The translations under genes and the position numbers were made by a program. The notes under the pieces are model-generated. The model searched no databases. It saw nothing but the letters and a program-made list of their open reading frames with translations, and had not been told where the DNA came from. Below are positions 3,208 to 30,641 of a DNA stretch of 64,000 nucleotides, piece after piece (the stretch's first letter is position 1; each line of letters begins with the position of its first letter). Origin of the DNA: Trypanosoma brucei (Eukaryota); NCBI GenBank assembly GCA_000002445.1, contig CM000208.1, positions 3,616,001 to 3,680,000 of the forward strand, written 5' to 3'.

Positions 3208-3900
3208 ATGGTGGTCATACATAGTGGACTTGTAACTCCCGTATTGGAAATTATGTCACTAGTTAAGCCGTTACCTTTTGATGTGGATGTGTTGTTGGAT
3301 GAACATCCCGATATGACAGTTTATCATCGCCCTCCATTGCAGAGCCGTGGTAGTGGAAGTAAATATATTTGCAATCATCATCCTGTTGAATTGCTTTCTT
3401 ATGAAGTGTACCTGTGTGATACGGAAGATGAACCAGTTGTCGATTTTGAAGTGAATAACCGAATTGTCGTACGATATCAACTTAACCCGTATTGTGCTGC
3501 TCAACTTTCACACCTTCGTGGGTTTGAGCCTCTCGTATATCCCTACGAGAGCCGTTACCTCCGTCCTGCGTATGTGGAAGTTGCACATGGCTCTGGCGGT
3601 TGTTGTTTCAATGGTAGCGGATCATCATATGGCATTAATGTTTGTGTGGCTCCCACTGATATTTTTGCTGGTTTCCCTCGCTCCAATAATGGTGATGATG
3701 CTGTTATTTACTCTACGGTACCCCACATCAGGAAACTCCTACAGCGGCCCTTTTCCCCCTTTATGGAATGTGGTCCCTTAATTGCGGATGATGTTTTCTT
3801 TCATTGGGATACCCTTGGTTTGCTTAGTTTGACTGATACGTGTGATTTGGGCATGTTCACAATTGAGGGTGTGTGTGGTGTATCCTCACATATTATGTAA
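3208..3900 (+). CDS. Tandem-array hypothetical protein, copy 3 (230 aa), a chimera of the copy-1 and copy-2 patch types
   Basis: ATG at 3208. It carries the copy-2 type central patch ('QLSHLRGFEPLVYPYESRY') but the copy-1 type C-terminal patch ('FFHWDTLG'). Position 83 is unique ('VNNR'). Confidence 0.65.
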   Translation: MVVIHSGLVTPVLEIMSLVKPLPFDVDVLLDEHPDMTVYHRPPLQSRGSGSKYICNHHPVELLSYEVYLCDTEDEPVVDFEVNNRIVVRYQLNPYCAAQLSHLRGFEPLVYPYESRYLRPAYVEVAHGSGGCCFNGSGSSYGINVCVAPTDIFAGFPRSNNGDDAVIYSTVPHIRKLLQRPFSPFMECGPLIADDVFFHWDTLGLLSLTDTCDLGMFTIEGVCGVSSHIM

Positions 3901-5296: not shown

Positions 5297-6064
5297 ATGG
5301 CGTCAAAGGGTTGTTTCATTGCCGTTCTTATAGCACGTACGCATGATCATGTCCCTTTGTGTAGTTTTACCGATGAAAACTACGCCAATTGGAATCAGAT
5401 CAGGCAACAGGAGCAGCGTATTCTTGAGCGAATGGAGTCACCGGCGTCGGTACCAGATTCAGCAGGGACGAGAGGAAGTTACTACCAGAGCTTTGACCAT
5501 AAGGACTGTATTTACTTTGCATTTCAGGATGCGGGGACGGGGTTGACGATTATCACCGTTTTAAACAAACTTCTTTTGCGCAATTCCAGTGACGTTACGT
5601 CGACTAACCATCTTGCGTGTAGTCTGTTAGACATGATCTTCTCTGAGTTTACGCAGGCTTACTCCACATCCGAGATTTCAGCCAGGACAGTTCGTCCCTT
5701 TCAGTTTATAAAATTTGAATCCACTCTAGAAAAACTCATACACCGCGTGCAACGCGAACGACAAAACGATGTTGTTAGCGATTCGCACGGTGGACAGCGA
5801 CGTCAGGTTAATACGCAGTACGATGCAATTAAACAGGAGCTAACAGACGTTCACTTCGTTATGCGCAAGAACTTGGAAGACCTTATGGTGCGTGGGGAGA
5901 AACTTGAGACAATGAATCAGTTTAGCGCCCAGCTGGTGGATGAAAGCTCTCGGTTCTACAAGAAGACGGCTCGCATGAACAGGATGCGTTTGTTAAAACT
6001 GTACGGCCCTCCTGCTGTAGTGATTAGCATTCTAGCTCTCTTCTTCTACCTCTACCTGTTCTAA
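5297..6064 (+). CDS. SEC22: Longin-domain R-SNARE, Sec22-like
   Basis: The N-terminal 'FIAVLIARTHDHVPLCS' resembles the Sec22b 'LLTMIARVADGLPLAAS' longin start. 'RPFQFIKFESTLEKL' aligns with Sec22b 'RPYSFIEFDTFIQK'. The R-SNARE heptads 'NLEDLMVRGEKLETMNQFSAQLVDESSRFYKKTARMN' contain the central Arg. A C-terminal transmembrane helix 'AVVISILALFFYLYLF' is present. ATG at 5297. Confidence 0.7.
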   Translation: MASKGCFIAVLIARTHDHVPLCSFTDENYANWNQIRQQEQRILERMESPASVPDSAGTRGSYYQSFDHKDCIYFAFQDAGTGLTIITVLNKLLLRNSSDVTSTNHLACSLLDMIFSEFTQAYSTSEISARTVRPFQFIKFESTLEKLIHRVQRERQNDVVSDSHGGQRRQVNTQYDAIKQELTDVHFVMRKNLEDLMVRGEKLETMNQFSAQLVDESSRFYKKTARMNRMRLLKLYGPPAVVISILALFFYLYLF

Positions 6065-8064: not shown

Positions 8065-8772
8065 GTCGTCAGTTGCCACGTTAACACACTCCCTAACCCA
8101 ACATTTAAACCCCGTGCAATGCACCTGCGGTTGCGGTTCTGTGGGTTGTAGGAACCGTTGCACCGGTGGATGTCCGACTAGAGGTGTGTGCTTCCGTATT
8201 GGGGTACTCGTAACCGTACCTCATGGTTTTGAAAACTTGTTAACAGGTAGCGCCTGGGGTGACGGGGAGTAGAAGGTGGTATATTGTGGTGGCCGACCCC
8301 ATGCACTACATATTGGGAGAAGAGGCTTGTGATGGTGGGGACAAGGCCTAGTGGCAGAGGGGGGTGCACAAGGGGCTGTTTGCCCGTTTACCGTTATATC
8401 CTCAGTTTTAATTGTATATATATATTTTGCTATTTCGCTCTGTTTCCTTGTTTTTTTCTTCGTTCACTTGCAGTAAGTTGTCTATTTCTTTTGTTTTTCT
8501 TGCTTTTACGGTGAAGCTAGCGTAGTAGGTTCGTTTGTACTGTACAGGGAGAAAGGGGCTGCGCAACGGCTGTCGCAGGTGCGCGGTAGGTCGTTCTAAG
8601 GGCAGGAAACCCCATCGATAGTGGTAGTTGAGGGGGAAAGGAAGCAGAAAAAGGGAAGCCAAGGGCGGCTGCGTGGATTCGTTTTGCTTCATTAGTTTTT
8701 ACAGCCCTTTACCCTTTCCAACAGGCTTGGTATTCTCCAATTGACCTCTCGTAGCCATTGTTTCGGACTACG

Positions 8773-11406
8773 ATGCTTGCCGTGAAGTACCTTCTCAAAC
8801 TGTACGAGACGCCCCCGGAGAATGGACACATCTCCGCGTTTGACACGTATGGTAATACAGTTTTCGCCGGCACTGACAGCGGTGTGTTGATGAGGTTCGT
8901 AGTAGAGGGAGCGACCTCACCCGAGATTGTACCAACGGAGGGCTCGCTCTCCGGTGACGCGAGGGACAGGCATATCAGTGGAGGAAATAGTGCTCGCAGT
9001 GCCGAAGCGGGAGGTGTTGGTGAGGAACAGCAAGCACATGAGGAAATGCATGCCGATGATTTTCACGCAGTTTCACAACTCGAGAAGATATACACCACGC
9101 TTGTGCATCACGTCGTCGTGTCGGAAACCCAGAGAAGAGTTGAGCGTATCCAGCACAGCAGAACACACAACATTTTGTTTGTGCTTTGCGAACACAGGCT
9201 TCTGGTGCTTAACTCGATAACCTTTGAACACATCTACACAGTTTCTGATTACGTGGGTACGTTTTTTGTTTCGGATTCGCGGCAGACAAGCTCCCAGCGC
9301 GTGGGGCGGCACGTGATTTGCACAACGGAACCCCACGGAAGGGAGCTTAGGGTATATGAATTTGACATAGCGCAGAACAAACATGTGCGACCGATGGCTC
9401 CACATAAGGTGATGCTTCATGAGCAGGCACAGACACTAGTCACGTACGGCAATATGGTTTGCGTGGGAATGCGGAGAGGCGGATATCGCTTGCTGTCGTT
9501 ACCTGACGGAAACACATGTAGTGTACTTCCGCTTTCTGGAGATATGCAGCCGTTACTGGCGGTGGGCGACGGCGAGGTCTTCATGCGCTATGATCATTCT
9601 ATTTTTTCAGTTTCGATGCGCTCCATGCCTTCTGGCCGCGTGCTTGGACGCACTATTCAGCTCGAGGATGAGGTCCGTCATATGATTGCAAGACACCCGT
9701 TTTTGTTTGCCTTCACTGAAAGTTACTGCGATGTCTACTCCCTCTACGATGATGACGTATCGGAGCGCTTGCCCATGAGCGGATGCCTCTTCGGCTCGCA
9801 GCTTGGTGGAGGGGATTTCCTTTACGCTGCCAGCGCAACAAAAATATGGATGGCTGGGTTGCATCCCCTGCGTCACCAGTTAGCCGACCTGGTTGAGCGG
9901 TTCAAGGTGGAAGAAGCTTTTCATCTGCTTAGCACTCAACGCTCGCGGAACTCCCTTGATTGGCAGGCGATCGAATTGGAGCTTCATGTTATGGTAGGCT
10001 TCGCTTACCTTCACCGTTGCCGCCCGAAGGAGGCAATGTTACATTTTAACGATCACATAGATCCAAGAGACCTACTTTTACTCCTCCCAGAGTGTATACC
10101 TCCAGGCCCCGATGAGTATAGTTCCGAGTTGCGGGGGTTGCTAAAGGGGGACTGCGTTGGGGAGACAAGAACGTCGTCGGATGGCGTTGATTTTGCATCA
10201 AAGGACGAGGATGTGGTGAATGTACCGGTCGGGGGAAATAATGTTGAGCCGTTACTCGCAAAATGCGGACCAGACATTGGATGTTGGGACGGTGGATTCT
10301 GGGAGGAGTGGAGTGGTTGCTGCCCATATAATACCTACATTGGAGAATTGGAGAAGGCCTGGTTGGAGACATTTGAGACTTTTCCTACAGTTCCGCGGAG
10401 CACCGACCAGGCAGACGGGGTAATCCACCGACAGGTTATGGAGTGGGGTTGCATTACCGCGGAAGGGTTTCTCGAGCGCTCATGGGAAGCACTAAAGGAC
10501 GAACTTGTAGTGTATTTCCGCTCACGTCTGGATCAAGCATCGCCCGTCCATGCCCGTCCAATGGAGTACGCCCTGCTGGTGCTTGCGCTTGAGGCTCGCG
10601 ACCATCGGGAGGCCTATCAGATTGTAGTCAAGAGCTCATCCTTGAGCGTGGAAGACTGCTACGACCTACTCTGTTCGTTGCACGAGTATCGGCTGTTGGC
10701 TTGTCTTCTGTACTGCCGCGGGTACACACAGGATGCCGATCGATTGCTGAGGCAACGTGTGTGCGTCTCAAGTCTGCTCCCTCCGTGGCTGCCGGGACGG
10801 TGTAACAATAGCAAACAATCCCCGGCGTACATGAATGTGCCCGCGGCTTTACACAGTCAGCTAACCCGCCTCCTAACGCCACTTCCTAAGAACGAATGTC
10901 TCGTTGTAGCTGATTTATCCAGTCCTAGAGGAGCACACTCGCCTAACGACGTGGACGAAACCCATACCATAAACCTGCCTTTGTCACTTTCGTTGCCTAT
11001 GTACCTCGTTAGTCATTTAAACATTCCCGCCCTGCAGGAGTTGTTGGCTGAGGATCCAGATGCTGCAGTGATCACTGATGAGGAGGGTTGTACGCTGCTG
11101 CACGTACTTTTCAGCCTTTTCATTTCGGTGAGGGACCTTACAGAAGGCGAAGCCATGACGAAAGGTAGTGCGCTAGTCGGTTTGGTGTTGTCATGTGCGG
11201 TGCTGCTTCTGGACCATGGCGCGGATGTCGCCGCGCCGAATGTTCATGGTATTACTTGTTTGGACGTACTTGCCATCGCCGCAGGTGGCGTTTTTTTTGA
11301 CATTGTTGTTTCCGCGTTGCTGGCAGACCGTGATGTTAGGAAGGCAGCTGCATTTACCAACAAGGATGACAATACGTTGGTGAACGGCTTCATCCCCATC
11401 GCATAG
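8773..11406 (+). CDS. Hypothetical 877-aa protein with a possible CNH/Vps39-like N-terminal region and C-terminal ankyrin repeats
   Basis: The ORF-track start at 8758 is TTG. The first ATG is at 8773 ('MLAVKYLL'). The C-terminus 'EEGCTLLHVLF...LLDHGADVAAPNVHGITCLDVLAIAAG' is an ankyrin repeat. The N-terminal 'HISAFDTYGNTVFAGTDSGVLMRFVV' and the middle 'LLLLLPECIP' resemble CNH and Vps39-domain proteins only weakly. It is a long ORF with balanced codon usage. Confidence 0.6.
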   Translation: MLAVKYLLKLYETPPENGHISAFDTYGNTVFAGTDSGVLMRFVVEGATSPEIVPTEGSLSGDARDRHISGGNSARSAEAGGVGEEQQAHEEMHADDFHAVSQLEKIYTTLVHHVVVSETQRRVERIQHSRTHNILFVLCEHRLLVLNSITFEHIYTVSDYVGTFFVSDSRQTSSQRVGRHVICTTEPHGRELRVYEFDIAQNKHVRPMAPHKVMLHEQAQTLVTYGNMVCVGMRRGGYRLLSLPDGNTCSVLPLSGDMQPLLAVGDGEVFMRYDHSIFSVSMRSMPSGRVLGRTIQLEDEVRHMIARHPFLFAFTESYCDVYSLYDDDVSERLPMSGCLFGSQLGGGDFLYAASATKIWMAGLHPLRHQLADLVERFKVEEAFHLLSTQRSRNSLDWQAIELELHVMVGFAYLHRCRPKEAMLHFNDHIDPRDLLLLLPECIPPGPDEYSSELRGLLKGDCVGETRTSSDGVDFASKDEDVVNVPVGGNNVEPLLAKCGPDIGCWDGGFWEEWSGCCPYNTYIGELEKAWLETFETFPTVPRSTDQADGVIHRQVMEWGCITAEGFLERSWEALKDELVVYFRSRLDQASPVHARPMEYALLVLALEARDHREAYQIVVKSSSLSVEDCYDLLCSLHEYRLLACLLYCRGYTQDADRLLRQRVCVSSLLPPWLPGRCNNSKQSPAYMNVPAALHSQLTRLLTPLPKNECLVVADLSSPRGAHSPNDVDETHTINLPLSLSLPMYLVSHLNIPALQELLAEDPDAAVITDEEGCTLLHVLFSLFISVRDLTEGEAMTKGSALVGLVLSCAVLLLDHGADVAAPNVHGITCLDVLAIAAGGVFFDIVVSALLADRDVRKAAAFTNKDDNTLVNGFIPIA

Positions 11407-11910: not shown

Positions 11911-13998
11911 ATGTCCTCCCTGACATCCGTCCAACGGCGCTTGCTCAAGTACGCCTTAGAGGACAAAGAGTCCAAGAAGTTATTGAAGCGCAAACGTGCG
12001 GAGGATGTTGCACCAGCGCTGCACCAACGCGAAAAGAAACGGACATGTGGTCACGTATGTGAGGCAGATACCACGCAGGATACGGAAATGACTCCACTTT
12101 GCCCTGAATTGCTTGACTTTGTGCGGCAGAAATGCCCCAGCGCGCCACGGAAGCTTCGCAAGGGACAGCTACACGTCATTAATGCTCTCAGTCGGGGTGC
12201 CGTAAGTGGTAAGGATGATGACGCTATAAATCGTTGTGGTGCCAGAGGCGCGTTTTCCGTAAAGCGGCTGGAAATGAAGGATCTCCCGTTTGCTTTTTCC
12301 ATCTTGGGATTGGCAGCGCTGCAGCGGCGATTATTATTTGACCAGAAAGTGAAAAATGGAACCTCGCTCCTGGTACTAACGGAGGACGAAGAGGACGCTA
12401 ACTCAGTTGCTCTTCACTTGAAGGAAACGTATCGTGGCGTCCACGTTTTAGTGCTCGACGGGTCGCGTTTTCCGTCGTTCCCCAACATTCCCAACGAGGA
12501 GGATAATGACGGAGACGCTACCAACAATACCTTTGCCGAGCGTACTGTGGTATTAGTGTCGTCGCTACAGGCCTTTCTTTCCTCCGACGGGCGGAGTGCA
12601 ATATGGAAATTTGTGGGGGCATACGTTGTTATTTTGAGGGAGTTGACTAACAGCACCTGTGTAGCAATGAAGGGTATGAAGAGAATGGAGCGGCAGGAAT
12701 TTTTGAAAAAACTGTGCGAGAAGAGGTGGCTTTGTTTGGATCACACACCAGTGGCTGCCGTGATAGCTCCTGCCCGCCACGCTCTCTTCACACCATTGGC
12801 TGATGCACTTACAATTTCTGTGCCCGTAGCGGGAGAGGATGCTGGAGAAGCGAAGACCGTTGACAAAGGGGAGGTCCGTGACTCCCATGATGAGAACCAA
12901 AGTAAGAAAAAGAAGGGGCTTCCAGTTGATACGTTGCGTGACCCTGTCACTGTACACTACACCGTGGTTGAAGGTCAACATCGCTTCCACACGTTGTATG
13001 CATTAGTGATGAATGCTCGTGCGGGCCAGGGCATTGTTGTGCATGTTGCCACCAAAGAAGTCTGCCAATTCCTCTATGATGTTCTACACGCACTCGGAGA
13101 TCTTCCACCATCACTTTTACTACTTACGGACTACGCGGGCCCCAGTGTGCACGCCTCAGTCCGTGACAGTGACGAAGACCGACAGAAAGTATGTGACAAG
13201 TTCGACGATATTGTTGTGAACTCCGACAAATCACTAGCAGGCAGTGGAAAAAGGGACCGTGTGGTCCTAATTTCTTCATTTGGCCTTGTTCCTCAAAGGG
13301 GGACCGTTTTCGTTCAGTACGACATCATTGTTGATATTGCGAACTTTTCCCAATTTGTCAGCGACGTGCTCACACCCGCGGCTTACGCGAACTTAGCGGC
13401 ATCACAGTTACCCCGTTTGGGTGGTCGTGCTGCACCGGGGGTTACTTCTGCAAGGCGGTCAAGATCTGTCTCCCCCAGCAAAAGCGTTTCTCCACCAAGG
13501 CCAACGCAGGTTCGTGCCATGTACCGTCACGTGCTGCTGTTACTCCGTAAAAACGAGCTTCAGGGGGCGCTTGAGCACTTCAACAGGTCTGCCAACAGGC
13601 TTCACATAACATACAAGCCTATGAAGCAAATGCCCTCTGCCACTCGATTCCTATTAGCGGTGCAGAAATTGCAGTCCCTGAACAAAAAGCAGTTTGCGGT
13701 CCAAAATGCTGCGTATGCCGCTTACAGAGCAACAATGTTGTTGTACTCCGTCATAAGCAGCAGCAAGGAGGTGTACGACGAGCGCAATGTTGATCTCAAA
13801 CTAGTTGCGCAGGAGTTCGGATATTCGGACGCTCCTATTGTCGATTTGCGCACACGTGACACAGCATTTCGACCCAAGGAGAATATCTTTCGCGCAGCGT
13901 GCAAAAGAGCAGCGCGTGACCGCCGTTTGCTGCTGCGCCCCCCTGCTGAGGAAGGCAGTCCCGAGGTGTCACAGCCACAGAGGGAGGAAAACCAGTAG
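11911..13998 (+). CDS. Hypothetical 695-aa protein with a possibly degenerate DEAD-box helicase-like (RecA-fold) architecture lacking the catalytic motifs
   Basis: ATG at 11911. 'HRFHTLYALVMNARAGQGIVVHVATKEVCQFLYDVL...RVVLISSFGLVPQRGTVFVQYDI' has the spacing of helicase C-domain motifs IV-V. There is no Walker A 'GKT', no DEAD box and no HRIGR. The termini are basic and Ser/Pro-rich. Confidence 0.55.
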   Translation: MSSLTSVQRRLLKYALEDKESKKLLKRKRAEDVAPALHQREKKRTCGHVCEADTTQDTEMTPLCPELLDFVRQKCPSAPRKLRKGQLHVINALSRGAVSGKDDDAINRCGARGAFSVKRLEMKDLPFAFSILGLAALQRRLLFDQKVKNGTSLLVLTEDEEDANSVALHLKETYRGVHVLVLDGSRFPSFPNIPNEEDNDGDATNNTFAERTVVLVSSLQAFLSSDGRSAIWKFVGAYVVILRELTNSTCVAMKGMKRMERQEFLKKLCEKRWLCLDHTPVAAVIAPARHALFTPLADALTISVPVAGEDAGEAKTVDKGEVRDSHDENQSKKKKGLPVDTLRDPVTVHYTVVEGQHRFHTLYALVMNARAGQGIVVHVATKEVCQFLYDVLHALGDLPPSLLLLTDYAGPSVHASVRDSDEDRQKVCDKFDDIVVNSDKSLAGSGKRDRVVLISSFGLVPQRGTVFVQYDIIVDIANFSQFVSDVLTPAAYANLAASQLPRLGGRAAPGVTSARRSRSVSPSKSVSPPRPTQVRAMYRHVLLLLRKNELQGALEHFNRSANRLHITYKPMKQMPSATRFLLAVQKLQSLNKKQFAVQNAAYAAYRATMLLYSVISSSKEVYDERNVDLKLVAQEFGYSDAPIVDLRTRDTAFRPKENIFRAACKRAARDRRLLLRPPAEEGSPEVSQPQREENQ

Positions 13999-15946: not shown

Positions 15947-16934
15947 GGGGACTGGTGAACTCTTGTTCAGTTCCCAGCGCTGACATTTAATCATAAAAGG
16001 TTAAGAAGTGAAAGGAGCCGGGGAGGCGTTAATTGAGAAGGAGCCGAGGAAGGAGAAGAAGTGCACCCCACAAAAAGGGTTGTGTGGAGCGAGAAGACGG
16101 GAAAGTAGCGACGGCATATGCCCCGTACCGCAAGCCATTGTTTTCTTCCTCTGTTGAGGGGAGGGGTGGAGGGTACATCGGGGGCTTTGTGCCTGCGTCG
16201 AGTCTCACCGTGAGTATGGGATGAAAAACAATTTGACAGGGTAAACATACATACAGGCTTGAGGGAGGAGGTCAAGTGGATAGTGCGGTTCCTCCTGAAA
16301 AGGCACTACCTCACCCGCTGCAACACAAAATCAGCATTCTGTTTGTTTTCGTAAGATATGGAGGGCACCTTCGTCATCCACATCGTTTACCCAAACGAAG
16401 AAGAAGAGAGAACATTGTAGGAGGTAACTTTGCAGCCCTGTCTTCCCCTCTCTTTTCCCTCTTCTCATCCACCCACCTGTTTGAATTCGTTTCGCTATTG
16501 GCCGACGTCCGCACTTACTTTCCTTGACGTACGCCACATACCTCTTTATCTCTTCGTCATTCCTGCATCTTCCTTTTTTTTTGTTTTCGTTTTTTATTCT
16601 GAGTTCATATGAGAGGAGTTGCCACTTTTTGAGTGGCTGAAAACCATATAAATCAATAAAACAACACCCCAGTTTACTGATATAGGGGTATCATTTTATC
16701 TCCTACCTCTATCCATGTAAAGCCCCCTTTTCTCCATCTAATTCTGATCGAAGAGACAATAGAAAATAGATTCTGCTTGAAGAAATATAGTATAGAGTTA
16801 AAAGAGCGACAAACGGCGCCTTCCCGTGTACACAAGGGTTGTTGGGACAGCGTGGAGTCAGCCCCCTCGTTTCCACGTCTGAAAGTCAGAATAGAGCGAA
16901 GGAAAAATACCGTTTTTAAGCCACACGTGGGGTG

Positions 16935-18917
16935 ATGGAAGGTGCTGCAAGGACGGTACCCGCTCAGTTTGCCCGCCTACCACCAACGGAACATGCACTT
17001 CTTTTAAACAGGTTTAAGTTTCTTAACCTGGTGCAACGCATTGCTGCTGCCGATGTGGCGGAGATGATCGATACCGTTGGATTAGAAGCACTCACATTCA
17101 AGGGGACTCTGGAGAAACTTTCTCTGGAAGGCTTTCCTGCAAGTGGTGTGTCGCGGAGTCCTCACATCATGGGAACTGACACTGTTCACGGGTTCGGGAG
17201 TCACATGAAAGATGAGATACATGGCAAAGGACATCTTACGGGCCGCGTACGCGGAAAGGGAGCACGGGAAAGAAGATTCTCTTCTCCAAAAGAGGAAAAG
17301 GAGTTTATCAACCGCCTAGCGCGACCACGAAACTATCGCAACCAATTTGGTACGGATTGGAGGAGGTATCCGCAGGGCACCCCGACCTCTGAACCTGCGC
17401 ATGTTCCAGGTGACCCCTCAGCGCAGTCCGTTTGGCACCGGAAGAAAAGTGATGTGTCTGCAGATTTGTATGATAATCGCTTGCGGGTAAGTAACGATGA
17501 GGATGATTTGTACGGAGACAACGTCGTCATCGAATCCTCTGACGACCGGCTGCAGCAGCATGACGGTGGGGCGCATAATGCGACGTGGAAGTCCTTCAGG
17601 CAGCCTGATCAGGAAGGTTTCCGCGATGATGCGATCCATGGTGGTGAGAGATGTAACATAGGAGAGTCTGCGGGGGGGTTTGCTGATGCTCCTCCCAGCA
17701 ATACCGTTGAAGGGATTTCTACGTTAGGAGCACAAAAGAGAGAGAACATAAATGCACCCTCGATCCTTTCCAAAGGCGCTTGGACCAAGAACCAGCCTGG
17801 TGCCCCCGGAGGGCAGTTTGTAGCTTTCGACGCAGCGTCAGCGCATACCATGAATTCTGCACGCAGGAATCGTGCCTCATTCGCACCAAAGGCCAAGCCC
17901 AAAGCGGCGCCTGATGTTCAACGCGTTCCTATGGAGGTCATCCGCCAAGCATCATTGTTATTGGCAGACAAACAGGTGGCAGAGCCGCTTCAACAACCGC
18001 CACCACCGCAGATTCCGCCGTCAGGAGCACAAAATCCAACGCAAAGCAACACACTCTCCGCGTATGGCAGTAACTTCCGTGGGAGCGGTTCGCAGGTGCA
18101 AGTGCCATCATCCGGTTCCCTCAACAGCAAAAAAGAGGTTGATAGTTCGTGCATTGTTCCCAAGCGTGTATCGGACGATACCCTTGCTGAGCTGACATTG
18201 TGCGTTGAGAAGATGTTGCAGGACCACCGAAAGGTACTTGAGGGTATTCTGAAGGATGAACGCCCTGCGCCTGATGATCCTCCAGCGGTGGTGAGGCGGT
18301 CAGAACAAGGCGGTCGCGGCGGTGTCGCCGATGGGGGCATTAACATGACGCGAGAGAAGACGTCCGTTAAGGAGCGTAAACCCTCGCCCAAGAGCACTCA
18401 CGGGGTTTCCGGTTCCACGATGGGTCGTATTAATGATTTGCTTGAGGACATCAGTGATGAGGAGGACGAGCTGCTGCTTGTTAACCGTATCCAACGAAAG
18501 ATTGGGGCTATGGATCGCGACATAGAGGCTATAGAAGCACGGGGTAAACAGGTTCACGGTTCCTTGGGTGAAAACGATGGTGATCACGAAGGAATATATG
18601 ATCGGGAAACTAGTTCAAAGAATACCAACCGCCGCGTCGCGTTTGCAGACACAATATCTTCTAGTCGGCGCCGAGGTCGTCGGCGAGGTGAAATGCCTCG
18701 CGCAATCGTTGAGCGTATTCGGTCTTTCCAAAAGGAGAATCACGAGTACATTCAATACACAGAGAGGCTTTGGAACACTTCAAAGGTGACGGAACAGGTG
18801 TTTGCGTACCGCCTTACAGAGAGTCTCTTAGATGACGCTCTCTGTGAGGTAATTAGTGAGGTGGGAGGCATACTCGACACATACGTAGAGGGTTTAACCC
18901 ATCACGAATTACAGTAA
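16935..18917 (+). CDS. Hypothetical 660-aa low-complexity (Ser/Pro/Gly/Arg-rich) protein
   Basis: The ORF-track start at 16932 is GTG. The ATG is at 16935 ('MEGAARTV'). It is a long open frame on the transcribed strand with a polypyrimidine tract at 16541-16605 upstream. No domain recognised. Confidence 0.5.
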   Translation: MEGAARTVPAQFARLPPTEHALLLNRFKFLNLVQRIAAADVAEMIDTVGLEALTFKGTLEKLSLEGFPASGVSRSPHIMGTDTVHGFGSHMKDEIHGKGHLTGRVRGKGARERRFSSPKEEKEFINRLARPRNYRNQFGTDWRRYPQGTPTSEPAHVPGDPSAQSVWHRKKSDVSADLYDNRLRVSNDEDDLYGDNVVIESSDDRLQQHDGGAHNATWKSFRQPDQEGFRDDAIHGGERCNIGESAGGFADAPPSNTVEGISTLGAQKRENINAPSILSKGAWTKNQPGAPGGQFVAFDAASAHTMNSARRNRASFAPKAKPKAAPDVQRVPMEVIRQASLLLADKQVAEPLQQPPPPQIPPSGAQNPTQSNTLSAYGSNFRGSGSQVQVPSSGSLNSKKEVDSSCIVPKRVSDDTLAELTLCVEKMLQDHRKVLEGILKDERPAPDDPPAVVRRSEQGGRGGVADGGINMTREKTSVKERKPSPKSTHGVSGSTMGRINDLLEDISDEEDELLLVNRIQRKIGAMDRDIEAIEARGKQVHGSLGENDGDHEGIYDRETSSKNTNRRVAFADTISSSRRRGRRRGEMPRAIVERIRSFQKENHEYIQYTERLWNTSKVTEQVFAYRLTESLLDDALCEVISEVGGILDTYVEGLTHHELQ

Positions 18918-19648: not shown

Positions 19649-20368
19649 ATGGCAGGCGGATCTACCTCCCCGGCCGTACGGGCACAGCAGATGATGAAAA
19701 CTGCGGACTTGGTGAACAAGTTCGTCATATCAACAGCACAGTTCTTGAATAGGTTTGCTGCGTATTGTGAAAGTAAGCTGCTTGAAACAAACCGGTCACT
19801 TCAGCGGTTGGAGACTCTTACACTGTTATTGGAAGCCAAAATCGCGAGCGTGGACGATGAGCTTAAGGAGACCCAACCGCAGACTGTTGAAGGTCAGACT
19901 ACCGTGAAGGCCCTAGGCGACAATGTGGCAAGGCTGATGATACCCGACCGCCAGGTTCCTCCACCCATGCCCGGGCTTTCGCCGGAGGGCGGCCAGCGGA
20001 GGTTACCACCACCACCGCCTTCGCATCAAAACCGGAAGGGTCCTCCCCCACCCCCGGGTTCAGCGGCACCAGCCGTCAAAGCCCCTCCTCCCCCTCCGGT
20101 GCCGCTTCCACCCCTGATGCCCGGGCCTCCACCACCGGGTGCGCTGCCGGTGCAACCCCCACCGATGCCACTAATGGGTGGCGTGCCAATGAGGTCCCAC
20201 CCACGACTTGCCGGTTATTATCAGATGCTGGCCTTGAGGGTTCCGGCGGAGGTCATAAAGGAGAAAATGCGATCAGATGGGTATCAACCCGAGTGGTTGG
20301 ACACCCCTGATGCCGTGTCTCCATCAGCACTGCCAAGTAGAAAGAGGGACATGTACGATTCCGATTAG
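19649..20368 (+). CDS. Proline-rich small protein with WASH-complex subunit 3 (CCDC53/WASHC3)-like N- and C-termini (BRK1-like coiled coil)
   Basis: 'DLVNKFVISTAQFLNRFAAYCESKLLETNRSLQRLETLTLLLEAKIASV' resembles human CCDC53 'AFLNQFVVHTVQFLNRFSTVCEEKLADLSLRIQQIETTLNILDAKLSSI'. The C-terminal 'RLAGYYQMLALRVPAEVIKEKMRSDGYQPEWLDTPDAVSP' resembles CCDC53 'RYARYLKMVQVGVPVMAIRNKMISEGLDPDLLERPDAPVP'. The central linker is poly-Pro. The alignments are from memory. Confidence 0.55.
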   Translation: MAGGSTSPAVRAQQMMKTADLVNKFVISTAQFLNRFAAYCESKLLETNRSLQRLETLTLLLEAKIASVDDELKETQPQTVEGQTTVKALGDNVARLMIPDRQVPPPMPGLSPEGGQRRLPPPPPSHQNRKGPPPPPGSAAPAVKAPPPPPVPLPPLMPGPPPPGALPVQPPPMPLMGGVPMRSHPRLAGYYQMLALRVPAEVIKEKMRSDGYQPEWLDTPDAVSPSALPSRKRDMYDSD

Positions 20369-20889
20369 ATGCACAACATCTATCCTAATCTCTTTATTCG
20401 TTGAAGGTATCGGCCAAGGTTGTGTCTATGATATGGATGTGGTGCATTTTGCAGTTGAATGGCGTTAGGCTTGCTTCGCCGTCGGCCTACGTGTACCGGG
20501 GAAGGTTCATAATTTCTCTGCGCGTTGGTGTGGGTTTTTTCTTGTTATATTGTTGGGTGATTTCCGTTGTACCCAGACCTTAATGCAGACACATGCGTGC
20601 ATACAGGAAAACACATGTGAGTGGTAATATTATTATTACTTTTATTTTTATTATTTATTCCATTTACTCTCCCCGATTACTTCAAAGTGCGTGGCTGTGA
20701 GAGAGGTATACAAGTTGTTACCCACACGGCAATACGTGAAGAAGGTTAAAGAGACCCTGCCGTTGCGGCAGTTTGTACCTGAGGTTGTACGTTACACGGG
20801 TGCAGGGGCGGCACAAAAAAACATAAATTAGCGTAAAGGTGCGCGGAGCTTTGTTTAAAACAAGTTCATCTACTGCGAAACATAACACA

Positions 20890-21702
20890 ATGCGACGGGG
20901 AAGTGGATTTGTGCACCTCAACACACCGGCGGCAATCTCCTACTCTCCAGGGCAACAAGTCTCTCTATCGGATCTCCGACAAAAGCGCCGCCGTGAGGAA
21001 TGTGTCGTATTACCCCCTATTATGACCGTGTGGCGGAGCGCCTTTAGTCAATACACGAAGATGTGGGGTTTAACTAAGTTTGCAGGCGATATCGAAGCTG
21101 AACGGGAAGGTGAGGGACCAATTTTACCACCCATAAGGGAGGAAACAGTGGTCAAGTCAACCACTCACAGTTTCAAAGGGAAAAGTACGACCGTAGCCGC
21201 TGCCGTTGCTACCCCACCAGGGGAAAAAGGTATCGAAATCGTGTCACACCACAAGCTTTGTGGTAAGCAGAGGTTTGTTTATCCTGATCATGATGGTGTG
21301 CTATCATCGGGAATAGTACCGAAGGTTGTGATATCAAAAGAGGAAGAGGAGGAGATGGAAGCGAACAAAAAATACTATATTTCCCCACAGGAAATGACTG
21401 AAGAGGAGCGGAATGCTTTCGAGGAATTGGATGCAATGTGGAAGAGCTACGCCCGTGGCCGTAGCGAACAAGGGGCAAGACACAGGGCATTTGCTGGCAC
21501 CGTTACACCCGGGGATGCCATGACAGAAGTTGAAGAAGAAACGGGGAACAACCGTGGAAATGCACGACGAAGGCTAGAGTCTCATACACCAAGGCAGCAC
21601 CCACAGGAATCTGCTGCGGAGGGTAATTCGGTAGCACATAATACTGAAGAGGCGCTAGATGATGCACTGCGGTTAATTGATGAACTGTTAGAGTTCAACT
21701 AA
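20890..21702 (+). CDS. Hypothetical protein (270 aa) with an acidic stretch 'EEEEEME'
   Basis: The ORF-track start at 20839 is GTG. The first ATG is at 20890 ('MRRGSGFVHL'). No recognisable domain. It lies on the transcribed strand. Confidence 0.4.
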   Translation: MRRGSGFVHLNTPAAISYSPGQQVSLSDLRQKRRREECVVLPPIMTVWRSAFSQYTKMWGLTKFAGDIEAEREGEGPILPPIREETVVKSTTHSFKGKSTTVAAAVATPPGEKGIEIVSHHKLCGKQRFVYPDHDGVLSSGIVPKVVISKEEEEEMEANKKYYISPQEMTEEERNAFEELDAMWKSYARGRSEQGARHRAFAGTVTPGDAMTEVEEETGNNRGNARRRLESHTPRQHPQESAAEGNSVAHNTEEALDDALRLIDELLEFN

Positions 21703-22298
21703 CATCGTGGTGGAGCGCGCTGCCACTGGGATCCGCATGAAGATACCTTCCTTTGAACCGCATACGTTGCGTTCGGGACGTTTCCTCAAGGGTACTGGTC
21801 GACAGCTTTTTTTTTTTTGTAATCCACAATTACCTGTTGCTTTCACCAGCTGCTCCAGGTTTTTCGGGTTCTTTGCGCAGCCGCGTGCTCCCTTGCCTTT
21901 TTGTTGTTGATCATTCCAAATTCCATCGACACGTGCGTACATCTGCAGGTAGGTTTATGCGTGTGCAAAACCTGATTGTTGACGGAGGCGAGATATGCGT
22001 TTGTCCTCGGATAACAACTTTATTTGGAGGAATTTTTAAGTGTTTTTGCTAAAGAGCATATTCCCCCTTTAAGCTGTTCTTCACATTATTGTTGCTGCCG
22101 CCGCTATTTAGTGGTGTGTTAGGCCACAAAAAAAAAGGTTTGATACCCTCCCCCCACCCGCATGAAATACTCTGCTCACATATTCTGTTTGGTTCAATAA
22201 ATGACATTAAATTAAGCGAACATGAGTTTGGTTTACCTCTATTTTTCTTCTGTCGAAGGGAAAGTTGTATTCAAAGTGGAGGGATAGCCCATAACATC

Positions 22299-22883
22299 AT
22301 GTATCGGCTCATGGTTCCGCACAAAACAGCAAAATGGGCCTCTGCAAGTGCTCCGAGAGCATTCCGGAACGCATTCCGGCGATGTAGCACTCAAGAGGGT
22401 GAGGCTGCTGCGGCATCCCGCACGGGTAAATCAACAGTCGGAGACACTTCAGCTGGATGCCAACAGACGGGACCTCAACGCAAGGATTGGCGTACAGGAA
22501 AAGAGGTTGTGTACGTCAAGGGTGTGCCAGTGAAGGGACCGCTACGGAAGTTACCACGCAAAGAACAAATACTTGTGTGCGTTATCTTCTCCATAACGGG
22601 GAGCGCTGCGGTGTATTTTGTTCGACCAGTCATAAGGAATTGTGTAACCAATGGGTTTCTCGGCCTCCCGGAGGACAGCAGTTGGTCAAATGGGCCGTGG
22701 CTTTATCGATTATTGTACGTGTCAATCATGTACCCATCTTACTCCTTTCTGTTGTTTGTTATTGGCTCCCTATTCGGACGCCGTGTGTGGTTTTCCTTCA
22801 TGATCCACAAAATGTGGTCACGTTTCTTGCCAAAGAAGGCCGCAAAACGACTCAAACACATGCTTGATTTGCAACATTACTAA
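22299..22883 (+). CDS. Hypothetical small membrane protein with a mitochondrial-presequence-like N-terminus and two predicted C-terminal transmembrane helices
   Basis: The ORF-track start at 22089 is TTG. The first ATG is at 22299 ('MYRLMVPHKTAKWASASAPRAFRNAFRRCS', basic and hydroxylated with no acidic residues). The hydrophobic segments are 'ILVCVIFSITGSAAVYFV' and 'WLYRLLYVSIMYPSYSFLLFVIGSLFG'. Confidence 0.4.
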   Translation: MYRLMVPHKTAKWASASAPRAFRNAFRRCSTQEGEAAAASRTGKSTVGDTSAGCQQTGPQRKDWRTGKEVVYVKGVPVKGPLRKLPRKEQILVCVIFSITGSAAVYFVRPVIRNCVTNGFLGLPEDSSWSNGPWLYRLLYVSIMYPSYSFLLFVIGSLFGRRVWFSFMIHKMWSRFLPKKAAKRLKHMLDLQHY

Positions 22884-25099: not shown

Positions 25100-28000
25100 A
25101 TGCAGAGCGCGGGAAGCGATGGGGAGCCGGCAGCTTGTACCAGTGCCATTTCAGCGTTGCAGCTTACCAACAGCTCTGCAGCTGTACTCTGTGGTGAAAA
25201 AGCACCCGAGATGTCCATCACACTGCTAGATGAAATAGTGCAGTTCCTGTCACCACTTCAGCTGCAAGGGTACATCTCCCGAATCATTGATGTTTGTGGT
25301 ACGCAACGAGTTGAGGAGCTCATACTGTGTGTTAGGTGCGAGAAGGATGTGGAAAACTTACTTGGAGAGCGATCGTCTCTGCAACAGCGACAAAATATGT
25401 GGAAGGGTTTGTGCAAGTATAAAAAGCTAGCTGCAAAGCGCCTGCAGCAGGAGATGAGGAAGAATGTGCCTCCCAAACGAACCCGTGTTGGTGTATTGAA
25501 CCCTACTGCTGGTCTCACCGGCGGTGCCACAACAACGACAAGTAGTGGAATCGGAGCCCCACCTCTGCGCCCGAAGCCTTTGTTCGATGCGTCAATTGGG
25601 TTCATTAATCGGTTAGCGTTTGCAGGGTACCAAGACAGTGGAGCTGACTTGGAGAAGCAGGACTTACCTCTAAATGTAGACAGCTTTCAGAAGACTTCTC
25701 TTGAGCTCGGTAATGGGGTACAGGATGTGGTAGCTCCACTTCAACTCAGTTTGCAGACGTTAAGTTCCTTGGGTTCCTCGCACATTTCGTTGAGTAGTCC
25801 GACCTCTTCTGGGGAGAAGCGCTACCGCCATGAGCGAGTACCACTTGTTTCGCTGTGTACCGCGGGGAAAGCGGGCGACGACCCCGAACATGGGGGTGCA
25901 GTGTATTGTGGTGAAATGTGGAGCTGTTCAAGTGAAGAGGATGAGGGGGTTGGGGCAGCACCCACCACGACATCATCACCGGAAAGGCCTGACTCTCACG
26001 TGAAGGAAACCATGGAACTGTGCAAAGCACAGTTAGATCAGCTGAGGAGAACGTTGAATGCAGCCGTTGAAGAAGCCGTATCGGTGTATAACAACGGGCT
26101 GCAGATACTGCAGGCGTGCCTAAAGGACGCGGTTGGTGACGTTTTGCCAGGAATTAGCAGTATCGCTACCGATGAAATTCGTGTCGAAGTGTTAGCTTTT
26201 ACTCAAACCCCGAGGCTGCGAGTGGAATTACACCCCCAGGAGCAACTCTGTGCTCTGGCACCGGACGATGCGATGAAAGCTACTTCGTCAGAAACGGCCA
26301 TGAAAGAGGCGCCTAATTCGCCTTGTCACAATCAAAGTTGTACTGGACCTCCGTCCGTGGGGGAACGGGGCGCATTAGAAGAGATCATTGCTGACGATGC
26401 GCCTATTTCCTTACCAGTGAGGGCAAGGGAACCCTCGTGTTCTTCTACCGTCGTTCCCAGCAACGCAGTCGGTTCATTTCATCCGCAGGTACCGAATGCA
26501 TGTGGTGAAAGCAACGCCACGCGAAAGAGCCCCCAAAACGAGCGTAATCATATGTTTCAAGAGATCTCTTGCAACGAACCAGGCGCTGTGTTGGAAAACA
26601 ATGCCACTGTCGAGTGCGGGGAGGACAGTTGTCGAAGTGTGCGCGTGTCAACCCCCACTGTTGTTGCCGTACCGTCTATTAGGAATACCGAAGCAACTCC
26701 TACGAGTGGCCCAGGTGGTGTGCGCTGCCGAGAGGCGATATTAATTTCGAGTGCGAGTAGGACGAGCGGTAGTTCCACTGCGCTCAATCATGTGGGTCAT
26801 GTAGGGGTGAGCACGACACCCGATGGAAACGGCGACTGTAATGTTGTTGAGGGAGCCGAAACTTCCGAGCCGTTTGATACTTCTCCTTTAGGTGAGTTTG
26901 GTCTGCATGCCATTCCACGCCCTGCTGACGTCAGAACCGTGCTTTTTGACTCACCGCAATGGCACATTGTTACACGGCAGGGGAATGAAGACTACTCGCA
27001 GATCATCGCTGGGAGTCAGGTTATTTATGTGGATGATGCCTCATCTAGCGTAACTGCTGCGGTAGGGCCAAAAGATACTACTAAACAGTTTGGCAATGTT
27101 GTTGATGCCCACTGGAACATGAACAAGTGTGGTGTTGGCTCCCCGGAGGCGACTACGATGGGCGGCACCTCGCTTCGACAGCGAAGCCTTTCCATAGTGG
27201 AAGATACCATGCCCATACAGGAATTGCATGATGTTGAGCAGGAAACGGTGTGTCAACGACAAAACGGTTTGGACTCATACTTACCCTTGTCGGAATCGTC
27301 AAATACAACAGGAGTCGTCGAGCGCTCTCTCGAGCCGTACGAATCCACCACTGCTTTTGAATTGTCCGTAATGGAGAACGCGGGCCCCAGCAGTCATTCC
27401 CAAGGAATCTCCGGACGGGGAAGTGATACGAATGCGGTCGAGTTTCTTGACGGAGAGCACTGTGGCAACGCCATGGCGCCAACCCGGTTTTTAACTGACA
27501 TACTTACCCCTACGACGTCCCCGCGACCGCCTGGTACATGGAGTGCAGTGGAGACGCCAGAGAAGGATAATTCGACTCAGATTAACATGGTGGAAGGTTT
27601 GATGGGAGAAGACATCAATGCATTGGATTATGATACCTTGAAGGATTTGTGCGGCAAGCTGGGTCTTAAGGTCCCCGGTGACTATACTTTTGGCGATTGT
27701 GATGATGAGAGTCAGTTTATTGGCAGCGCGTTCAGTCACCAAAATGATGAAATTTGTGACTCCACAGGGCTGTCTGGTGATAACGGCAATAGTTGCCCTG
27801 CGCACGATGCGGTTAATGGGGCGTTTGCGGTGTGTGGTGGTGATGCTGGAAATGAGGAAACACTTCAGCAACCACCGCATGGACAAAAGGGTTACACACC
27901 TCAACTGAGTGGGTTGTTGACGCGAGATGAAAGTGAGAACTGTGGTAAGAGGTCAGCTGCCACACCTCCCTTCTCCATGGATGCAGAGGATTCCGAGTGG

Positions 28001-28744
28001 TATGATGCGCAACGTACTGCGAAAGAAGGGCAAATGCGGGAAGTGCTTCGACTGTTCATTACGCGGCATTTCTTCATGCAAGATGTGGCAGCGTTTTTCC
28101 TCCATCGTTTGCCACGGTTCTCGGGTGGATCTGCATATAAACGACTTCGGGTCAGCGATTTCTTGAAAACGCGCTTTGTTTTAACCCAGGGGGAGCTTGA
28201 GGAGGAACGACGTGTTGCGAGAGTTAAGGAGTTGGAAGAGATGAACTGCTGTGTTCTCTCTAGTCTTGCTGGTGACTCGGCCGAGCGTGTTGAAAGGCAA
28301 GCACTTAATTTCTTGAGGAATAATACGGCGTCTCTCGGCGATCAACAACTAGACTCATCACTTATATTCGATCCAAATCGCTCATCCAGCCAGGTGGACA
28401 ACGCGGATCAAGATGAGCTTTCGCTTTATGAAAAACTGCTTCTCATGGAACCAACTGATGTTCATACTGTAACGGGACTTGTGCAAACGGACTTTCCACA
28501 TGTGACTCGACATCGCGTGGAGACACTTATGAGGGAAGCCGGTGTTCCTATAATCTGCTTGCAGCGTGTTCACAACACTCAGGGACCTGCTGACGGCGAT
28601 GTCGATGTGACCCAGCGCCCAACTACACCCACTTCACCGACAGGGAGTTCACGTACTGAAGTAACCCAGCGCAATCAATTTCACAACCGGAAAAAAAAAT
28701 TCTTTGCCCAACGCACTTTGTTCACACGTGCGCGCGATCGATAG
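25100..28744 (+). CDS. Hypothetical 1214-aa protein, largely disordered and Ser/Thr-rich, with weak SAP-like and CUE/UBA-like motifs
   Basis: ATG at 25100. 'LDYDTLKDLCGKLGLKVPGDY' is SAP-like. The C-terminal 'LVQTDFPHVTRHRVETLMREAGVPIICL' is CUE/UBA-like. It is a long uninterrupted ORF. Confidence 0.55.
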   Translation: MQSAGSDGEPAACTSAISALQLTNSSAAVLCGEKAPEMSITLLDEIVQFLSPLQLQGYISRIIDVCGTQRVEELILCVRCEKDVENLLGERSSLQQRQNMWKGLCKYKKLAAKRLQQEMRKNVPPKRTRVGVLNPTAGLTGGATTTTSSGIGAPPLRPKPLFDASIGFINRLAFAGYQDSGADLEKQDLPLNVDSFQKTSLELGNGVQDVVAPLQLSLQTLSSLGSSHISLSSPTSSGEKRYRHERVPLVSLCTAGKAGDDPEHGGAVYCGEMWSCSSEEDEGVGAAPTTTSSPERPDSHVKETMELCKAQLDQLRRTLNAAVEEAVSVYNNGLQILQACLKDAVGDVLPGISSIATDEIRVEVLAFTQTPRLRVELHPQEQLCALAPDDAMKATSSETAMKEAPNSPCHNQSCTGPPSVGERGALEEIIADDAPISLPVRAREPSCSSTVVPSNAVGSFHPQVPNACGESNATRKSPQNERNHMFQEISCNEPGAVLENNATVECGEDSCRSVRVSTPTVVAVPSIRNTEATPTSGPGGVRCREAILISSASRTSGSSTALNHVGHVGVSTTPDGNGDCNVVEGAETSEPFDTSPLGEFGLHAIPRPADVRTVLFDSPQWHIVTRQGNEDYSQIIAGSQVIYVDDASSSVTAAVGPKDTTKQFGNVVDAHWNMNKCGVGSPEATTMGGTSLRQRSLSIVEDTMPIQELHDVEQETVCQRQNGLDSYLPLSESSNTTGVVERSLEPYESTTAFELSVMENAGPSSHSQGISGRGSDTNAVEFLDGEHCGNAMAPTRFLTDILTPTTSPRPPGTWSAVETPEKDNSTQINMVEGLMGEDINALDYDTLKDLCGKLGLKVPGDYTFGDCDDESQFIGSAFSHQNDEICDSTGLSGDNGNSCPAHDAVNGAFAVCGGDAGNEETLQQPPHGQKGYTPQLSGLLTRDESENCGKRSAATPPFSMDAEDSEWYDAQRTAKEGQMREVLRLFITRHFFMQDVAAFFLHRLPRFSGGSAYKRLRVSDFLKTRFVLTQGELEEERRVARVKELEEMNCCVLSSLAGDSAERVERQALNFLRNNTASLGDQQLDSSLIFDPNRSSSQVDNADQDELSLYEKLLLMEPTDVHTVTGLVQTDFPHVTRHRVETLMREAGVPIICLQRVHNTQGPADGDVDVTQRPTTPTSPTGSSRTEVTQRNQFHNRKKKFFAQRTLFTRARDR

Positions 28745-29183: not shown

Positions 29184-30641
29184 ATGGCAAGTTCTACAGC
29201 AACCGCCGACGATGAATTGGTACCATACCATGCATTCCACAATAATGATGAAAAAATGTTTCCCATGCTAACCCTTTACTGTCCACCAGTGCCACCGTCA
29301 ATGCTTGTGGGCCGCTACAAACCTCCGCAGAAACCCCCATACAAATACCTGAACGACATATCAACTGCAGGGCTCCGTGAACACATGGCTCAAGCTACAA
29401 TTGCACGCATGTGGCGGGGTCTTCTAACCCGTCGCCGTTTAAATAATGAGGCGGTTCACCGCTACGTGCGTCAGGTATTCGCTACAAAGATCCAATGCTG
29501 GTGGCGGTTCCTCATCGCTGGGTGGAGGCGGGACAAGTTGTCCAAGATAAAACAACAGTGGGTTGAAGAGCAGAAGAAAAACTTTTTGGAGAAGCGCTTG
29601 TCCGGTCAAGCGGCCATGAGAACATGGCAGCGAAGGCGTTTTGAGGACGCCGTTATGAAAATACAGCGTGTATTCCGTTGGTACCTCAGTCGACGAGACC
29701 TTTTATTCGCTGATGAGGAAGCCAAGTCGAAGGTTCTTCCCTTCCCGGTGGATTACAAACCTAAGGTGTATTTCCCCTGGCGCCGACGTCGGGAGGAAGC
29801 GGTCCAAAAGGTAGGGGAGAAGTTTGAGACTGCAGAGGACTCCGAAGGGCTTACAGGCGGATTCCAATTCCGCAAAACACCAAAGTACCCCAGTCCACCA
29901 ACGATTGAAGAGGTCAAGGAAATTAACGATGCGATGCGCCTTCGTGAAGCGAGGCTCGCGGAGATTCTCGATCAACCGGAGGTACATGAACGCAGACAGT
30001 GGAAGATTGATGGTCTTCGGGAAGATGACTTTGACCACAATGCGGGTATGATTCAGCGTTTTGTTAAGTACAGATGGGACGACGCGAAAAGGACAACGCT
30101 GAAGCTCACGTCGGAATACTTTGAAAAGAAGGCTCGCATCATTCAGCGCTCCTTCCATTTGTATAAGACGTTCTGCAGAATGCGGCAAAGCCGTAGGCTC
30201 AATGAAAAGGCTGCAGCGCGGCTGAACACCGGCTATGCGCGAGAGAGGTTGTCCGAGCTGGAAAAGGAGCTGGCGTGGAAGAAGATTCTCCTTAATAATG
30301 CCGCCCTGACGATTCAGAAATGCTGGGCGTTCTACAAGTACAAGTTGACTGCGCATGATCCCTTCTACGCTGCCGCGAATGAGGGAGAAAAGCAAGAAGT
30401 GGATGTTGAGGTTACCGTGCCCACAGCCCCACCATACCGGCTGATTGATGATCATATCCAACGTGAAGCTCAGCTCCGCAACGCTGCTTGCTCAAGGATG
30501 GCTAGGGAAATGGAAGAAATGGTACAGGCGAGGAAAAAGACATGCGGCCAACGATTCAAACCGAAAAAACTGATTATCGCTAGTGAGGAGATGGTTTATT
30601 GCCGCCGGTGCAGTGACAGCGAGGAGAACCCAGAGATGTAA
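29184..30641 (+). CDS. IQ calmodulin-binding-motif protein (485 aa)
   Basis: Multiple IQ motifs: 'IARMWRGLLTRRR', 'ATKIQCWWRFLIAGWRR', 'VMKIQRVFRWYLSRR', 'ARIIQRSFHLYKTFCR', 'ALTIQKCWAFYKYK'. ATG at 29184. Confidence 0.65.
   Translation: MASSTATADDELVPYHAFHNNDEKMFPMLTLYCPPVPPSMLVGRYKPPQKPPYKYLNDISTAGLREHMAQATIARMWRGLLTRRRLNNEAVHRYVRQVFATKIQCWWRFLIAGWRRDKLSKIKQQWVEEQKKNFLEKRLSGQAAMRTWQRRRFEDAVMKIQRVFRWYLSRRDLLFADEEAKSKVLPFPVDYKPKVYFPWRRRREEAVQKVGEKFETAEDSEGLTGGFQFRKTPKYPSPPTIEEVKEINDAMRLREARLAEILDQPEVHERRQWKIDGLREDDFDHNAGMIQRFVKYRWDDAKRTTLKLTSEYFEKKARIIQRSFHLYKTFCRMRQSRRLNEKAAARLNTGYARERLSELEKELAWKKILLNNAALTIQKCWAFYKYKLTAHDPFYAAANEGEKQEVDVEVTVPTAPPYRLIDDHIQREAQLRNAACSRMAREMEEMVQARKKTCGQRFKPKKLIIASEEMVYCRRCSDSEENPEM

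Follow-up and report, generated by a model that had tools for sequence, protein, structure and literature searches.

A probable WASHC3 (CCDC53) ortholog with a proline-rich linker in Trypanosoma brucei

The WASH and WAVE complexes each consist of five subunits, which correspond to each other one to one (10.64898/2026.09.18.752629). CCDC53 and BRK1 are regarded as trimeric coiled-coil precursors, each of which supplies a single strand of a heterotrimeric coiled coil, formed together with FAM21 and WASH in the case of CCDC53 and with Abi and WAVE in the case of BRK1 (10.64898/2026.09.18.752629). In Euglenozoa, WASH was reported as the only nucleation-promoting factor of the WASP family and WAVE as absent; the WASH protein of Trypanosoma was described as having kept the CA region and as being without WH2 (Kollmar et al. 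2012). In Leishmania, strumpellin (LmjF.27.1660, PF10266) has been documented and is under purifying selection; it was also reported for Trypanosoma species (PMC11684767). Arp2/3 is reported in trypanosomatids as well, its composition there being called unconfirmed in reviews. In the literature searched, we found no experimental study of any trypanosomatid WASH complex, no paper specific to trypanosome CCDC53 (DUF2360/Q387Z1) and nothing specific on SWIP/KIAA1033 or FAM21 of T. brucei or on retriever/WASH comparative genomics. The trypanosomatid WASH complex has apparently never been studied experimentally.

The gene presented here is located in a stretch of 64,000 nucleotides of T. brucei DNA, in the following called the window. 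It forms a complete coding sequence on the forward strand (19649-20368) which starts with ATG and encodes 239 amino acids followed by a stop codon, whereas the reverse strand of the same region contains many stops. Both peptides quoted in the original prediction, VNKFVIST...AKIASV (residues 22-68) and RLAGYYQ...TPDAV (residues 186-223), are present in its translation. The product shows 100% sequence identity to the T. brucei protein XP_827993.1 / Q387Z1 and is identical to CBH16746.1 of T. b. gambiense DAL972, both of which are labelled "hypothetical protein, conserved". A third Trypanosoma member of the same cluster differs at 2 residues and bears the label "coiled-coil domain-containing protein (DUF2360)". 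On chromosome 10 of DAL972 (FN554973.1) the same gene was called with the domain PF10152 and with exactly this protein, and the window matches that locus with 99.0% identity over 6.7 kb of alignment, which places the DNA in T. brucei but in a strain other than DAL972. The domain assignment for T. brucei is already precomputed in public databases, and orthologs have already been named WASHC3. With 58%, the G+C content of the gene is higher than that of the window (47%), which can probably be attributed to the proline (CCN) and glycine codons in the linker described below and not to a foreign origin.

The classification is based primarily on the Pfam family PF10152 (CCDC53, WASH complex subunit). 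The 239-aa protein matches this family with E=1.1e-37 and 130.2 bits, the gathering score being 24.6 bits, and the match covers the complete profile (1-147 of 147). No other family was matched at E<=10. When the termini were scanned separately, residues 1-100 (E=5e-20) matched profile positions 1-62 and residues 170-239, the last 70 aa, matched positions 107-147 with E=4e-12, each of them exceeding the gathering score by itself. The proline linker scanned alone had no match in Pfam. These results bear out the earlier proposal that the N-terminal and the C-terminal segment are both CCDC53-like; neither terminus falls below significance when it is considered on its own.

A sequence search against about 5.8 billion proteins recovered 43 relatives, and PF10152 was found in every one of them (43/43). 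They range from Trypanosoma, Leishmania and Leptomonas over Heterolobosea (Acrasis) and Amoebozoa (Planoprotostelium) to a sponge, the genus Trypanosoma being represented by T. congolense (68%), T. theileri, T. cruzi, T. rangeli and T. melophagium. Several of these proteins were named WASH complex subunit 3 or CCDC53 by NCBI or JGI, among them those of T. melophagium, Acrasis kona, Planoprotostelium and the sponge Halichondria. In an alignment of 24 sequences, reaching from kinetoplastids to the sponge, the residues F32, L33, N34, L61 and E62 are the same throughout, and V198, P199, M207, G211 and L217 are so in nearly all sequences. In pairwise comparison with the WASHC3-like protein of the sponge, the N-terminus shows 38% identity (E=1e-14); the resemblance of the C-terminus (25%, E=0.066) is weak yet recognisable.

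Three parts and a short tail can be distinguished within the protein by alignment and by an AlphaFold2 model that was calculated with the 24-sequence alignment. The N-terminal part is a long alpha-helix of residues 8-74 (19670-19870, forward strand, as for all parts given here), which carries the invariant FLN(R)F motif, corresponds to positions 1-62 of PF10152 and is modelled with a pLDDT of about 97. By analogy, it is the predicted coiled-coil strand by which WASHC3 would dock into the WASH complex. Its hydrophobic periodicity shows a peak at 3.5-3.6 that lies above all but 5% of the shuffled sequences; this is marginal (p about 0.05), and the periodicity was therefore not counted as evidence for a coiled coil. 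At the other end, residues 178-218 (20180-20302) make up the conserved CCDC53 block, HPRLxGYxxMLxLRVPxxxxKxKMxxDGxxPxWL, which matches positions 107-147 of the profile and is modelled as a compact module with helices at 188-195, 200-209 and 214-217 (pLDDT about 87-91). The following tail of residues 219-239 (20303-20365) corresponds to columns of about 340-450 in the 24-sequence alignment; it contains a TPDA motif and ends with an acidic Y-DSD, kept in Trypanosoma and in some environmental sequences, Leishmania having DEPD instead. Low pLDDT values were obtained for residues 234-239.

Between both conserved parts, no structure was modelled from residue 75 to about 180 (pLDDT about 45-60). Residues 101-177 (19949-20179) form a disordered, proline-rich linker with a pLDDT of about 50-60 and no secondary structure. 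The linker of about 80 aa rich in poly-proline that had been predicted is indeed there: 42% of residues 101-186 are proline. Six runs of 3-5 prolines are found at 104-106, 120-124, 132-136, 146-150, 160-163 and 170-172, and four of them belong to motifs of the type XPPPP(P), namely LPPPPP at 119, GPPPPP at 131, APPPPP at 145 and GPPPP at 159. The second of these motifs extends to GPPPPPG, which hardly varies in the 24-sequence alignment: P134 and P135 occur in every sequence, and P132, P136 and G137 in nearly all. A Foldseek comparison of the model with the PDB gave no matches; since the model consists of one long helix and disorder, this outcome was expected and is uninformative.

In its general organisation the T. 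brucei protein corresponds well to animal WASHC3/CCDC53. The same order of an N-terminal coiled-coil helix, a variable linker and a conserved C-terminal block is found, PF10152 is covered completely, and WASH1 co-occurs. Differences concern mainly the linker, which is longer and far more proline-rich in T. brucei and contains the four XPPPP(P) motifs, whereas the linker of human WASHC3 is not known to be poly-proline. The setting also differs from the animal system, as the WASH1 partner of Trypanosoma is without WH2. Among trypanosomatids, orthologs with 35-70% identity share this architecture and all contain PF10152; they include TCIL3000_10_12980 of T. congolense, a 'DUF2360' protein of T. 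cruzi, the 'WASH complex subunit 3' of T. melophagium and a 295-aa protein of L. major. In Leishmania and Leptomonas, however, the linker is longer, acidic/basic in character and less rich in proline (8-11% compared to 18%), and the protein ends with DEPD and not with DSD as in T. brucei.

Coiled coils and poly-proline tracts are known to draw spurious family matches, and several weak PDB matches (E>0.03) obtained with our protein were of this type. That the CCDC53 assignment itself arose by chance or by composition, from a coiled coil combined with low-complexity proline, has nevertheless a negligible probability. The match is not a compositional artefact because each of the non-repetitive termini is significant and the linker alone is without a match. 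Likewise, specific motifs are invariant (FLNRF and VP...KM...G...L), and proteins named WASHC3 were recovered by the separate sequence search. A different question is raised by BRK1. No CCDC53 chain was among the PDB sequence matches, neither in the single-sequence nor in the profile search, and the best of these matches were the BRK1 chains 3p8c_E and 3pp5_A, which aligned with residues 16-69 only and reached E=0.24 in the former and 0.0011-0.0021 in the latter search. The original prediction had described the N-terminus as BRK1/HSPC300-like and had considered a relic of the SCAR complex. Of this, the likeness of the helix is retained, in the form of a weak match with E of about 1e-3 when a profile is used: in both proteins, one long helix contains the shared core motif FLN.F...C..(K/R)L, and about 50 residues can be aligned. 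We consider it very improbable, though, that the helix is a BRK1/HSPC300 homolog in the sense of a SCAR/WAVE relic, in a protein that descends from BRK1 or functions like it. The BRK1 match falls short of the one to CCDC53 by about 34 orders of magnitude and is restricted to the helix, and BRK1 comprises merely 73-75 aa, without a linker or a C-terminal module, compared to 239 aa in T. brucei. The relic reading is rejected since the CCDC53-specific C-terminal block is significant alone (E=4e-12) and since WAVE is reported to be absent from Euglenozoa. Moreover, the known correspondence of both complexes already explains the similarity of CCDC53 and BRK1; the BRK1 resemblance seen here is this distant correspondence and not a SCAR relic. 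A BRK1-like helix with E of about 1e-3 fits the one-to-one relation of WASH and WAVE subunits and a CCDC53/FAM21/WASH coiled coil. When assessed as a candidate member of BRK1/HSPC300, a family of single helices of about 75 aa with similarity over the full length, the protein differs by its extra linker and the CCDC53 block.

With the identity as CCDC53 preferred, the presence of partners has to be considered. The premise of the original prediction that kinetoplastids are without WASP-family factors is contradicted by the WASH proteins described in Euglenozoa (Kollmar et al. 2012). For T. brucei, we took the WASH sequence (TbWASH) from the supplementary alignment of that study and removed the gaps. 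In Pfam, TbWASH matches WASH_WAHD (PF11945) with E=1.5e-30; the WAHD alone was found, and there was no WH2 match at E<=1. Its N-terminal 336 aa led to a database protein of 576 aa (P0046) with 100% identity, which is encoded on a contig of 2.44 Mb and named "WAHD domain of WASH complex [Trypanosoma brucei equiperdum]". WASH1, which had been pointed out as a partner to look for, is hence present in the T. brucei group together with WASHC3, and orthologs from T. congolense (74%) and T. melophagium (63%, named "WASH1") were retrieved with TbWASH as well. WASH in kinetoplastids has been part of the literature since at least 2012. It is said to appear already in a paper from 2010. The co-occurrence of WASH1 was computed in this work and that of strumpellin is taken from the literature only. 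All large neighbouring ORFs were also checked for further WASH subunits, and none was seen.

An orphan remnant would be a WASHC3 left over without its complex and employed by new partners, for example as a free coiled-coil/poly-proline adaptor. The missing WH2 domain of Trypanosoma WASH1 and the T. brucei record still being labelled 'hypothetical protein, conserved' could be taken in favour of it. Against it stand WASH1 in the same species group, in T. congolense and in T. melophagium, and the purifying selection on strumpellin in Leishmania. Furthermore, both CCDC53 blocks are kept in more than 20 kinetoplastid lineages, with residues conserved up to the sponge, which argues for retained ancestral interactions. 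We consequently rate the remnant as improbable: since WASH1 was found (PF11945, E=1.5e-30), and since the literature documents strumpellin in Leishmania, reports it for Trypanosoma and reports Arp2/3 for trypanosomatids, T. brucei WASHC3 is very probably not an orphan subunit. It is an ordinary, catalogued ortholog, because the parasite also encodes WASH1 and its relatives encode strumpellin. Taken as a whole, the original prediction was right about the CCDC53/WASHC3-like identity and the linker; the orphan status, the missing WASP-family factors and the SCAR relic are not supported.

Two further observations on WASH1 can be added. TbWASH possesses a second proline-rich block and ends with DDDDDW after its C/acidic region. 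Among environmental relatives of WASH1 (P0053 with 35% identity; P0104 and P0108 listed alongside), some combine WH2 (PF02205) with WAHD, for example P0053, which is consistent with a loss of WH2 along the Trypanosoma lineage.

In our opinion the T. brucei gene is very probably orthologous to WASHC3 (CCDC53), with a function as in animals; among the five subunits that make up the WASH regulatory complex, WASHC3 is the smallest one. Homology, architecture, conservation and the co-occurrence of WASH1 were established for this assignment here, and the remainder is transferred from the animal complex. By this transfer, the N-terminal helix would be one of three strands in a heterotrimeric coiled coil, the other two coming from the N-termini of WASH1 and FAM21. 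BRK1 plays the corresponding part beside WAVE and Abi in the WAVE complex. Such a coiled coil would stabilise WASH1 and keep it within a regulated complex. If the animal scheme applies, the WASH complex would activate Arp2/3 and thereby produce branched actin patches on endosomes, where cargo is sorted and recycled. As Trypanosoma WASH1 is atypical, being without WH2 and having only WAHD in Pfam, the complex may have a different output. The main value of these findings is that a premise is corrected: trypanosomes do have a WASP-family factor, WASH, and WASHC3 is an expected subunit. Bloodstream T. brucei relies on very fast endocytosis and on recycling via the flagellar pocket. Since the gene is small it should be easy to tag, and WASHC3 might become a practical handle for the purification of the trypanosome WASH complex.

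A more speculative role may be proposed for the linker. XPPPP(P) motifs resemble profilin-binding tracts, and residues 101-177 are, judged from their sequence, a candidate tract of this kind, whose motifs might recruit profilin-actin. Trypanosomatid profilin contains a WH2-like insertion, and profilin mutants of Leishmania have defects in endosomal sorting; the authors of that work propose a cooperation of profilin with proline-rich WASH subunits. The missing WH2 of Trypanosoma WASH1, the WH2-like insertion of profilin and the poly-proline tracts together suggest a delivery of profilin-actin in trans. That the poly-proline tracts of WASHC3 and WASH1 dock profilin-actin and that profilin in this way supplies the lost V function in trans is, in our estimation, rather unlikely. 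If it were true, WASHC3 would be an active element of actin delivery and not a passive scaffold.

All gene-like ORFs of at least 150 aa in the window are encoded on the forward strand, an arrangement to be expected in a polycistronic unit of trypanosomatids. Nearby genes include RPS13, an R-SNARE, NAP, CBP30, a DUF6787 protein, a methionine aminopeptidase, a CH_2-domain protein, a TBCC-domain protein and a kinase, and the gene directly downstream of WASHC3 is CBP30, a kinetoplastid-specific cap-binding subunit. As these neighbours are unrelated housekeeping genes and belong to an ordinary polycistron, the genomic context carries no functional information on WASHC3. This includes the synaptobrevin-type R-SNARE (PF00957, E=9e-13; 5297-6064, forward strand), a trafficking gene found 14 kb upstream of WASHC3 within the shared transcription unit: in a trypanosomatid polycistron, such a linkage gives no grounds for assuming a functional relation. 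Six large ORFs of 451-1214 aa in this unit (8758-11406, 11911-13998, 16932-18917, 25100-28744, 29184-30641 and 58297-59652, forward strand) have no Pfam match at E<=1e-3, and none of them resembles a WASH subunit; they are probably kinetoplastid-specific proteins. An unusual domain pairing was observed in an ORF of 1678 aa (43800-48836, forward strand), where a TBCC (tubulin-binding cofactor C) domain at about 970-1057, matched in three stretches with E=1.3e-27, occurs together with a weak kinase-like stretch at 292-344 that lies below the Pfam cut-off (E=6e-4).

Compared to FN554973.1, two ORF calls of the window are longer, both on the forward strand: that of CBP30 (20839-21702) with 287 aa instead of 270 aa and that of the DUF6787 protein (22089-22883) with 264 aa instead of 194 aa. 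Both calls begin at GTG or TTG, and the true protein starts are probably internal ATGs. Finally, three nearly identical ORFs of 230-231 aa (MVVIHSGLVTPVLEIMSLVKPLPFDV...) without a Pfam match are arranged in tandem on the forward strand at 801-1496, 2000-2692 and 3208-3900. The differences between the copies lie mainly in a small patch at about residues 98-115 and close to residue 198, and their mosaic pattern suggests gene conversion.
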